A DNA stretch of 64,000 bases. It comes from Rhabdochlamydiaceae bacterium. GTDB taxonomy: Bacteria > Chlamydiota > Chlamydiia > Chlamydiales > Rhabdochlamydiaceae. The position numbers were made by a program, and so were the translations under genes. The notes under the pieces were generated by a model, which saw only the letters and a list, made by a program, of their open reading frames with translations, did no database searches and was not told the origin of the DNA. Below are positions 11,272-14,200 of the stretch, one piece after another. How positions within the stretch are numbered: the stretch's first letter is position 1; every line of letters begins with the position of its first letter. The stretch lies in the NCBI GenBank assembly GCA_047459655.1, contig JAJREF010000003.1, positions 159,759-223,758 of the forward strand, in the 5' to 3' direction.

Positions 11272-14200
11272 TTATTTCAATACGCTGCAGGTGATTTTTT
11301 CGAGTTCTTGGGGTGTAGTAATTTTTTTAAGAGAATGGGTTTCTTTGAGAAGCTCTTTGCCCTGGTGCTTTTCTGTAGAAAGGGTGTAAGTGCCGAACTT
11401 GAGGAGGGTGTATCGCTTTTGTGAGGCTAAGAGGCGGATGCGGGCGAGGTGGTAGAGCCAAAGGACAGGGGGAGGGGGCGTCCCGAATCGGTCTTTGAGT
11501 TCATCTAAGATGTCATCAATTTCTTGGAGGGTTGAGACTTCTCCGAGGCGGTGGTAGATTTCAAGGCGGAGGGAGGTTTCCGGAAGGTAGGTGTCAGGGA
11601 GGCGGGCGTCATAGGGGAATTCCATTTTAGTCTCATGGAAGGAGGGGTCTTTGTGGTGCTGAAGAGCTGCCACGGTGCGTTTTAACAGTTTGCAGTAGAG
11701 ATGGAATCCGATGGAGGCGATGTGGCCTGACTGTTGGATGCCGAGGATGTCGCCAGCTCCGCGCATTTCTAGATCGCGCAGAGCAATCTTCATGCCACCG
11801 CCGTAACCTTGTGACTCTACGAGCGCGTGGAGACGTTTTAAGGAGTGCTCTGTGAGGGTTTTTCCCTTGGGGGTAAGGAAGTATGTATAGGCAGGTCGAT
11901 TCCATCTGCCGACTCTGCCACGGAGTTGGTAGAGGTCTGCGATGCCAAATTGGTCGGCTCTATCGATGAGGATCGTATTGGCATTCGGGATGTCGATCCC
12001 ATTTTCAATGATCGTTGTAGAGAGAAGGATATCTGCTTCTCCTGATTTAAAAGCATGGAATACGGTATCTAGTTCGTCTGCTGACATCTGTCCATGACCT
12101 ATGACAATTTTGGCTTCCGGCAAGAGTTTTTTCAGATCTTCTCCTATTTGGTGGATCGATTCGACTCTGTTGTGAATAAAAAACGCTTGTCCATCACGAG
12201 ATAGTTCTCTGACAAGGGCATTTTGAATGACGCCGGGGTCTCGTTCTGCAATGATGCTTTTGATGGGAAGGCGATCTTGTGGTGGAGTGCTGATGATGGA
12301 GATTTCACGGGCCCCCACAAGAGAGAGGTAAAGCGTACGGGGTATGGGTGTTGCTGTGAGTGTGATGCAGTCAACACCCGTCTTAAGGGTTTTGAGGTGT
12401 TCTTTTGCTCTGACGCCAAAGCGTTGCTCTTCATCAATGATGATAAGGCCTAGATTTTGGAAGGAGACATCTTTGCTGATGATTCGATGAGTGCCAACAA
12501 GGATATCGACTTTGCCCTCTGCTGTCATCTTAATGGTGTCTTTGATTTCCTTAGGTGTTTGAAAGCGAGAAAGGACGCGGATAATGAGAGGGTAATTGGT
12601 TAGTCTTTCACAAAAAGTTTCAAAGTGTTGGAGGGCAAGTACAGTTGTTGGAACAAGGACTGCAACTTGTTTTTTTCCTTCATAGGCAGCTTTAAAGGCT
12701 GCTCTTATGGCTACTTCTGTTTTCCCATAGCCAACATCTCCACAGATGAGGCGGTCCATTGCCTTAGAAGATTCCATATCTTTTTTAATGGCAGATATGG
12801 CTTGGAGTTGATCTTCTGTTTCGACATAGGGGAAATCTGCTTCGAACTGCTCCATGTCAATGGTGTCGGGGGGGTAAGAAAATCCTCCATGGAGGGTTCT
12901 TTCGGCGCTAAGGCGGAGGAGATCTTGAGCATAACCGATGATAGCGGTGTGGGCTTTTGCTTTTGTGTTTTGCCAATTTTTTGTTCCCAGCGTATGGAGT
13001 GAAGGGATCTCTTCATGCGCTCCAATGTACCTGCTGACAAGGTAAGATTGCGCAATTGGTACAAAGAGTTTGCTTTTCTCTGCATACTCAAGCACTAGGA
13101 ATTCTGTTTCGCTACCTGTGTGGTTTTTTTGCTTTTCGATGCCAAGATATTTCCCAATACCATGTTGAAAATGGACAATCAGATCTCCGGGAATAAGTTC
13201 ATGGAAGTCAGAGGCTGGCGTGTGGTGGGTAGAGCGCCATTTTTCCCTCCTCACTTTATAGCGGTGAGTGAACTCAGTCATCGGGATTATCAAGGTGTTG
13301 CTGTCTGCAAGCGCAAAGCCAGAGGAGAGGTACCCTCTTTCAAATAGCGCTCCTTTTGGAAGGGCGATTTTTTCTTGGAGAGATTTTTCTTCCGATTCGG
13401 TTGCACAAACAAAGTGTATATCAAGGTTAAGTGTTCGGTTTAGTGCTCTGTCAGCCTTTAAATGAGGAATTGGATCGCGCGAAAGCTCCCGGGATTGAGT
13501 TGTCGAAGAGGGTGGGTGTATTCCGTCAATACTACCTCCCTCTTCGACAATCTCAATCTCGGGGCTTTGGCGCAGATTCAATCCCTCATTTAAAGGCTGA
13601 CAGAGCACTAGATTAGGCAGGTAGCCCTGGACGGGAAGGAAGGGATGTTTCCACCTTTTGGAGGTGATGGTTCTCTTGAAGATCTCAAAGGTAAGGGGTT
13701 GGAGAGGGTTTTTACCGGAATAAAAGTCTCTCCCGACTTTTTCAGAGATTTGGATGTCGGTAAGATCGCTTAAAGGTTCTTTTGTCCAATAGAGGCACTG
13801 CTTTTTTTCAGCCATTTTTAAGAGATCCTCAAAGAGGAGAAAAAACTTGGAGGAGGAGAGTTTTTGTAGGGCAATCGATCTATCTTCAAGCGCGAGTAAG
13901 TCATCGAATATGAGTAGGGTATCTTCTGGCATGAATGAAAGGAGTGTGGAGAGATGGGGCTCTTTTTTTAGAAGTTCTAGTTCTCCTGCAGGTGATAAAA
14001 AAGGGAAGAGACTTTGCCTGTCGATTTTTGTCCAATCGGATCAAAAGTGCGGATCGACTCGAGGGTGTCTCCAAAGAAATCGAGTCTATAAGGATCGGTA
14101 GAGGCAAGAGGAAATACGTCGATAATACCGCCGCGCACAGCAAATTCCCCTTTATCTGCGACAACGGGGCTTCGTTTATACCCGAGGGTGGATAAGAGAT

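Follow-up and report, generated by a model that had tools for sequence, protein, structure and literature searches.

Rickettsia palindromic elements (RPE-1 to RPE-3) are long hairpin repeats of obligate intracellular bacteria that lie in frame in conserved genes and add a peptide at a tolerant site (PMC2229807, PMC10969869, PMC3767692, PMC3733652). They are 105-146 bp long and some have TA at both ends (PMC2229807), and a review table lists their target duplication as unknown. RUP, found in Streptococcus pneumoniae, is a TA-flanked MITE with ends matching those of IS630-Spn1, and its mobilization in trans was inferred from end identity. It is a single family with one end type and is intergenic, and the Correia and ERIC elements are grouped with it as relatives in kind (PMC2229807; PMC3184786 was also used for the comparison of RPE and RUP). 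In the reviews consulted, a candidate transposase is named only for RUP, and how RPE-like palindromes move stayed open. The CMITEs of corals are eukaryotic and all have piggyBac-type termini. Their internal region is more conserved between families than the terminal repeats, and this core is of unknown origin and has been proposed to help transposition (PMC2872659). REP/REPIN-RAYT systems and TIRtrons are palindromic repeats with variable paired stems that are sometimes intragenic in repair genes, the REP/REPIN units being 20-40 bp, tagged and tied to Y1 transposases (PMC3733652). No description of comparable elements in Chlamydiae was found among the papers listed by searches of the literature, and the main text of a bioRxiv census of MITEs contains no occurrence of 'Chlamyd', though its supplements may list them.

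The window, which is the whole stretch of 64,000 nt from genome G000 that was analysed, contains an element of this kind within mfd (Table 1). The region between positions 13441 and 13610 is 170 nt long with TA at each end, and the element proper is 166 bp. Its perfect outer inverted repeat is 27 nt when the TA is counted and 25 nt inside it. The initial annotation described a 166-bp hairpin with 27-bp perfect outer repeats between duplicated TA dinucleotides, and the sequence and a repeat search bear this out. The 56-aa in-frame insertion that it reported was also recovered, with the peptide VLCQ...ADRAL found between GYLPNL and NRTLNL in the Mfd ORF, and the opposite-strand ORF at 13431-13616 is present. 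The element folds as one hairpin (-123.8 kcal/mol, z -18.9), and none of 200 shuffled sequences folded as well. The covariance model R1, whose training set includes this element, gives it 140 bits. Within the core are a CAAAGC box, a TTGA box, a central TATT-loop-AATA and a GCTTTC box, with conserved asymmetric bulges. The inserted region matches no Pfam or NCBIfam family (NCBIfam was tried at E<=10 in both orientations). In Rfam nothing reached the gathering score, the best match being a 12.8-bit chance hit, and the hairpins of the wider family gave nothing apart from generic hairpin scores below threshold. The element is short, lacks a transposase, has terminal inverted repeats and a target-site duplication, and has an empty-site allele at the protein level; dispersed multiple copies are found at the level of the family. 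The mfd insertion is thus a real, confirmed in-frame MITE insertion.

Table 1. Coordinates of mfd and of the parts of the inserted element (positions in the window)
Feature	Position	Strand	Basis
mfd main ORF, 886 aa; RID, DEAD/helicase and TRCF domains	11272..13932	-	Pfam; TIGR00580 above cut-off
mfd N-terminal part (UvrB-interaction domain), in other frames	13977..14662	-	Pfam; frameshift comparison
56 codons inserted in mfd (residues 110-165 of the main ORF); predicted to be disordered	13441..13608	-	ortholog gap, AF2
Palindromic element (MITE), single long imperfect hairpin	13443..13608	-	sequence, fold, covariance model R1
TA, one copy of the 2-bp target-site duplication	13441..13442		sequence; net 168 bp = 56-aa gap vs orthologs
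TA, other copy of the duplication, within the CTA Leu codon of YLPNL	13609..13610		sequence
Outer arm, terminal sequence of IS630-subgroup type	13579..13610	-	IS end profiles
Second outer arm, complementary to the 13579..13610 arm, 27 nt perfect	13441..13472	+	repeat and profile comparison
Conserved family core	13479..13569	-	alignment of family copies

A match to Mfd was found in 29 of 31 genomes searched, and in a protein alignment the inserted segment was absent from all 19 orthologs included. Those of G001, which belongs to the same genus, and of G011 have a clean 56-residue gap, as the initial annotation had predicted for related Chlamydiae. The other 17 have a different stretch of roughly 10-25 residues at this position, and the insertion site therefore varies in length. 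An empty site, GYLPNL/ERTPNL, again seen as a gap of exactly 56 residues, was also found in P0004, a protein from the same Mfd cluster that is 1045 aa long and unbroken. P0004 shares 795 identities in 830 ungapped columns (~96%) with the Mfd of G000, and because an empty-site allele known at the protein level is this similar, we infer that the insertion is recent. In an AF2 model of the first 400 Mfd residues (20-sequence alignment), residues 111-165 are mostly coil with pLDDT <50, flanked by a short helix on one side and a confidently predicted strand-helix domain on the other; pLDDT is about 80-90 for the domain after the insert. Foldseek confirmed the fold as Mfd and did not place the loop. 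The insertion site is ~40 residues before the stretch that aligns with residue 433 of Escherichia coli Mfd, upstream of RID, in what is probably domain D3. In the domain order of Mfd, D3 precedes D4 (PMC13453472). The 56-residue insert would thus form a predicted disordered loop in a length-variable part of the protein.

The upstream part of mfd is split by two 1-nt deletions in A or T homopolymer runs, near 13998 and 14510, and P0004 is continuous across the region of both breaks. Were mfd a decaying pseudogene, the in-frame position of the element would be luck without selective meaning. The breaks themselves are what this explanation would require; the one near 13998 is shared by P0007, from a second assembly, and run X1 agrees with the one near 14510 and has no gap there. 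However, both are single-nucleotide losses in A or T runs, and X1, which may be the source data of the assembly, shows three further 1-nt deletions. The adjoining essential gene alaS (window 14628-17213) is itself in three ORFs, probably from homopolymer errors, and many genes of the assembly are likewise broken. In 57 sampled gene bins there were 24 frameshift candidates, at about 22 distinct places and mostly net losses. The 886-aa part of mfd is free of stops and retains its high identity to the intact P0004. We therefore consider a pseudogene unlikely; the frameshifts are probably assembly errors. The assembly also contains overlapping contig ends, and most of G000:C4:3262-14749 duplicates C1:652364-663858 at 99.6%, which is in line with the 5.8% contamination figure for G000.

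The exact mfd element is single-copy in G000, where BLAST and nhmmer found only diverged relatives at about a dozen places. The expectation of further copies was therefore borne out for the family across related genomes and not for the element itself, though the single exact copy does have an empty-site ortholog. Elements with the same ends as the mfd copy are present at no fewer than five loci in G008. When G000 was scanned for structure only, 121 hairpins were found, many of them near 165 bp. They fall into 14 multi-copy families which, counting partial copies, give 277 hits and occupy 2% of the genome. Several of these families have the core of the mfd copy and others lack it. Twenty-five aligned copies share invariant boxes (CAAA, TAT..ATA and TTT). 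Of 60 pairs in the alignment, 52 show compensatory changes, more than in any of the 500 shuffles or any slid control. The two mismatch types G-U and A-C occur equally often (88 vs 82), and the symmetry of the family therefore points to the DNA level, not to a strand-specific RNA. Net lengths are 159-169 bp in 96 of 98 elements with a duplication. Lengths divisible by three were found for 13 of 22 families (naive p=0.012, the families not being independent), which is a hint only of a preference for such lengths.

Model R1 matches 18 of 31 related genomes, with full-length hits of 162-170 nt. It has 138 matches in G041 and at least 92 in G026, and a copy may be counted on each strand. Searching the genome collection with the core pattern gave at least 118 loci; the titles of the 118 listed are 80 of the Chlamydiae group, 18 'uncultured bacterium', nine Verrucomicrobiae, seven Acidobacteriota (from one MAG) and four others. 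R1 matches 77 of the 81 loci on which it was tried, and the four misses are Burkholderiales, Oscillospiraceae, Cryomorphaceae and viral. Neighbouring genes at the hits titled Verrucomicrobiae or Acidobacteriota share up to 72-80% identity with genes of G000, and these records are probably mislabelled chlamydiae. The candidates, in which the element is abundant, are L137, L141, L147, L172 and L194 (all G041), and L158, L178, L187 and L203. The distribution of the family suggests that G000 comes from an environmental chlamydia. Viral contigs gave one core-pattern match, which is not a hairpin, and plasmids gave one 35-nt chance match to the element.

Four further hairpins, from other families, lie outside long ORFs in the window, at 3481-3649, 21198-21322, 41491-41662 and 61860-62025, and only the first matches R1. 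Nested elements and tandem arrays were seen at G000:C1:250909-251172, C2:191703-191974 and C2:243986-244298 and at L096-L107. Some elements are reduced by symmetric internal deletions to as little as 25-30 bp, and others to remnants of one end. G000 also contains two identical copies, at C3:40896-41593 (L040) and C5:319175-319872, of a group II intron of ~700 nt that lacks a long ORF. Both match Rfam D1-D4 above threshold and are inserted after GACCTAC; L040 interrupts a hairpin element just past its loop, and the C5 copy follows a short GC hairpin. On the + strand of the window, at about 41900-44300, an open frame of 792 aa has tandem repeats of 21 residues and, after them, a region that resembles an NEL-type E3 ubiquitin ligase domain. 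This frame is a possible secreted effector.

Copies that would contribute to a protein are rare. An ORF of at least 150 aa spans only the mfd copy among the 125 full-length hairpin copies in G000, where such ORFs cover roughly 84% of the genome and frameshifts may hide some spanned copies. Considering 128 distinct elements, an open frame spans 10, and in all 10 the coding strand is that of the mfd copy. The initial annotation had suggested that either orientation would be tolerated. The reverse frame is indeed open at the mfd site, although the spanned copies all use the one strand. The 118 unspanned elements have any open frame on the mfd-type strand in 29 cases and on the other strand in 16, and because these are few the hairpin family is not built to code. 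Intergenic copies show no clear bias relative to the orientation of the flanking genes (15/23/21/14). These observations support a MITE that is mainly intergenic and of which few coding insertions have survived.

Internal insertions, recognized by a gap or split in the comparison with homologs, were found in a 1409-aa ORF of G001, in an AcrB-family pump (L229/L491), in a HemY-like oxidase (L238) and in a RecD-like helicase (P0003). Copies near ORF starts were found in L198, L206 (TsaE) and L221, and L207 is doubtful. The proposal that a chlamydial element family extends conserved proteins with new peptide segments is upheld by the empty-site ortholog, the multi-copy family and the in-frame copies in unrelated genes. 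L491 (G042:C2:206383-206545) is the only copy in an Alphaproteobacteria-titled genome and is in frame in its AcrB-family gene. Its DNA is 50% GC, against 57-69% at other loci of G042, which suggests either a misbinned contig or a transferred island.

A target duplication was identified in 98 of 127 elements and is TA in 70 and TAA/TTA in 28. Duplications of these kinds are hallmarks of DDE transposases. The element termini are 36-39 nt from the CAAAG box (some may be mis-called by 2 nt), and the end types are TAC, GTA, GTG, GGG and GGA. In G041, L267 is an IS630 (DDE_3 and HTH) with ends TA then GTACATGACGATTAAA. In hairpins L194 and L219 of the same genome, one arm contains 26 nt of the L267 right end and the other arm an almost identical sequence; this sister family matches the L267 end at 26 of 26 nt. 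L147, also in G041, has the same core with a different outer 15 nt. Relatives of the L267 transposase were detected in 25 of 400 phylum genomes (one further genome was not scored) and in the 80 metagenome loci that were kept. The end consensus of this IS630 subgroup is TAGTACTCTGTCAA..AATTGACGG, and IS630 elements ending in GTGCTCTGTCA are also present in the phylum (L360, L367).

End profiles were built from the 53 right and 56 left IS ends that were recovered. The mfd arm scores 26.5 bits against the right-end profile and 24.4 bits against the left-end profile, with up to 25 of 32 nt matched, and over its positions 14-32 only 0.03% of random genome words do as well (profile p about 3e-4). 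For 25 of 32 arms the left-end profile gives a score at least equal to that of the right-end profile, and an origin of the elements from the IS right end only was not supported across the arms. The reverse complement of the 13579..13610 arm reads P-S-F-K-G-stop, resembling the last codons of several transposases of the subgroup. As in RUP, ends matching IS630 terminal repeats accompany a TA duplication with a preference for CTAG; a C precedes the TA at 37 of 49 GT-type element ends and 104 of 109 IS ends, and at one side only of the mfd copy.

No IS with ends identical to those of the mfd copy was found. An IS630 transposase (DDE_3) was not found in G000 (81.6% complete), G001, G008, G011 or G018, nor in the element-rich G026, G031-G035, G037, G038 and G040, so that partner and MITE often do not co-occur today. 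Transient visits by the IS, together with collapsed repeats, could explain this. The cognate transposase was thus not found in the incomplete G000 and is present for the sister family in G041. The top-listed hairpins of G239 and G127 have ends unlike those of the IS630 resident there. Arm pairing and searches for long-range inverted repeats gave no autonomous partner in G000, and its multi-copy ISs, presumably IS481-like and IS4-like from their ends and proteins, have unrelated ends. PF13586 was not found in G000, G001, G008 or G026, and PF13359 was found only in G030 and in the IS5 of G000. Rpn (PF12784) and Y1 are each patchy in distribution and show no tie to the element.

From the match of the ends, we consider that the mfd element is a non-autonomous MITE moved in trans by an IS630-family transposase, with a probability of about 0.78. 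The transposase would act on the element ends and would cut and paste the element into a TA site of mfd. This would duplicate the TA and add 168 bp with the frame kept, producing the predicted disordered loop of 56 residues. The copy would survive because it is free of stops, a multiple of three in length and in a tolerant loop, most other coding insertions having been purged.

The core is better conserved than the ends, with 0.86-1.21 bits per position against 0.32 in the outer arm over 29 arm families, a contrast inflated by ascertainment as the core was the query, though the first families came from the structure-only scan. This conservation, the fixed element length and the retention of asymmetric bulges are what would be expected if the mover were a structure-recognizing enzyme (HUH/Y1 transposase or integrase-like) that reads the folded single strand and its bulges, the IS-like ends being passengers. 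Y1 transposases are also present in the element-rich G034 and G026, which are without DDE_3 or DDE_Tnp_1. However, the duplications are of DDE type and the match to IS630 ends includes the subterminal bases. Y1 was not found in G000, G001, G008, G018 or G041 and is present in the element-negative G007 and G010. Unlike in the REP/REPIN systems, no PF01797 was found in G000, and no element arm borders or forms the end of a Y1 gene in the 20 Y1 loci. A structure-reading mover is thus quite unlikely, and mobilization by an IS630-family transposase is retained as the reading for the mfd copy.

The same core is found with different ends. For pairs of elements whose arms are unlike, cores of different end types are 0.754 identical within one genome (14 of 80 pairs >=0.85) and 0.688 identical between genomes (1.7% of 3655 pairs >=0.85), against 0.693 for cores of the same end type in different genomes; the pairs are not independent, and a few end types are mis-called. 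Core similarity thus appears to track the genome and not the end type. G018 has one core (0.89-0.96) with GT, GG and TAC ends, and G041 has one core (0.90-0.92) with TA-duplicating GT ends and TTA-duplicating TAC ends. Full-length chimeric copies exist (L096) and L027 has one arm converted to the other, so that the recombination steps needed for end capture are seen. GG-type ends resemble IS5 ends, presumably those of the IS1031/IS427-like groups, and share TAA/TTA flanks, but only 10-15 of 20 nt agree. Comparison with 22 IS5-type repeat pairs gave no identical partner for the GG-ended families.

Two IS5-type elements were seen whose ends match other hairpin families of G000. L073 (G000:C3:6639-7824), with ends TTAA then GGAACCTCTGG, matches the most abundant, family 0 (92 hits, mostly TTAA-flanked), and the two form a MITE and partner pair with different interiors. 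The ends of L465 (G082:C1), GAACCTATCCCGATA, are those of families 5 and 14; the G000 copies compared with it were C1:307003 and C1:324362.

End capture among IS630 ends is well supported by these comparisons, and capture across transposase families is only suggested. We note that homogenization of the core by gene conversion would give the same pattern. The conserved core may serve as a scaffold or enhancer to which ends from different ISs are joined by recombination, each new end then being copied to the other arm by palindrome-templated conversion. A broader possibility is a phylum-wide 'adaptor' MITE, covering IS630 ends with TA and IS5-type ends with TAA/TTA, whose self-complementary core captures the ends of resident ISs, copies each new end to its other arm and passes from one transposase family to another, unrelated one. 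It would persist longer than any of these families and continue to place new loops in chlamydial proteins. We rate this tentatively, a little short of an even chance. The coral CMITEs share the pattern of a core more conserved than its termini, whereas the chlamydial family is bacterial and fully palindromic and has IS630-type ends and, as a suggestion, IS5-type ends. The difference from RUP is that the chlamydial core appears to carry many end types and two duplication lengths, and that some copies are in frame.

The likeness to RPEs that the initial annotation drew holds for behaviour, as both are palindromes in frame in conserved genes, and homology was not detected. The candidate transposase family can be named here, and coding copies are a small minority. 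That the element is a true, horizontally shared member of the RPEs is very unlikely. Apart from this shared behaviour and the TA ends of some RPEs, it has in its favour one copy in an Alphaproteobacteria-titled record (L229). Against it, the insert has no NCBIfam match in either orientation, the RPE1 model TIGR01045 matches none of five genomes (run without a positive control), there is no Rickettsia title among the 118 core-pattern loci listed, and the lengths differ (159-169 bp here). A long-read fold-back or an assembly artefact as the source of the hairpin, as might be thought from an error-prone assembly in which none of the listed X1 contigs spans the whole element and runs X2-X4 have no coverage of it, is effectively refuted by arms that are imperfect in a family-typical way, by homologous cores in many independent genomes and by an X1 contig that bridges the 13441 junction without differences.

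An RPE-like coding palindrome is thus found with ends that match a defined IS630 subgroup. Because the IS and a hairpin that matches it are both present in G041, mobilization can be assayed directly, and the insert allele of mfd with its empty counterpart offers a natural pair for tests of tolerance in Mfd. Within single genomes, one core is joined to different ends and to duplications of different length, which suggests that end capture allows a MITE to change its transposase; we found this only loosely described, for coral CMITEs (PMC2872659). If the 'adaptor' reading is true, it would provide a testable route for how RPE-like coding palindromes move.
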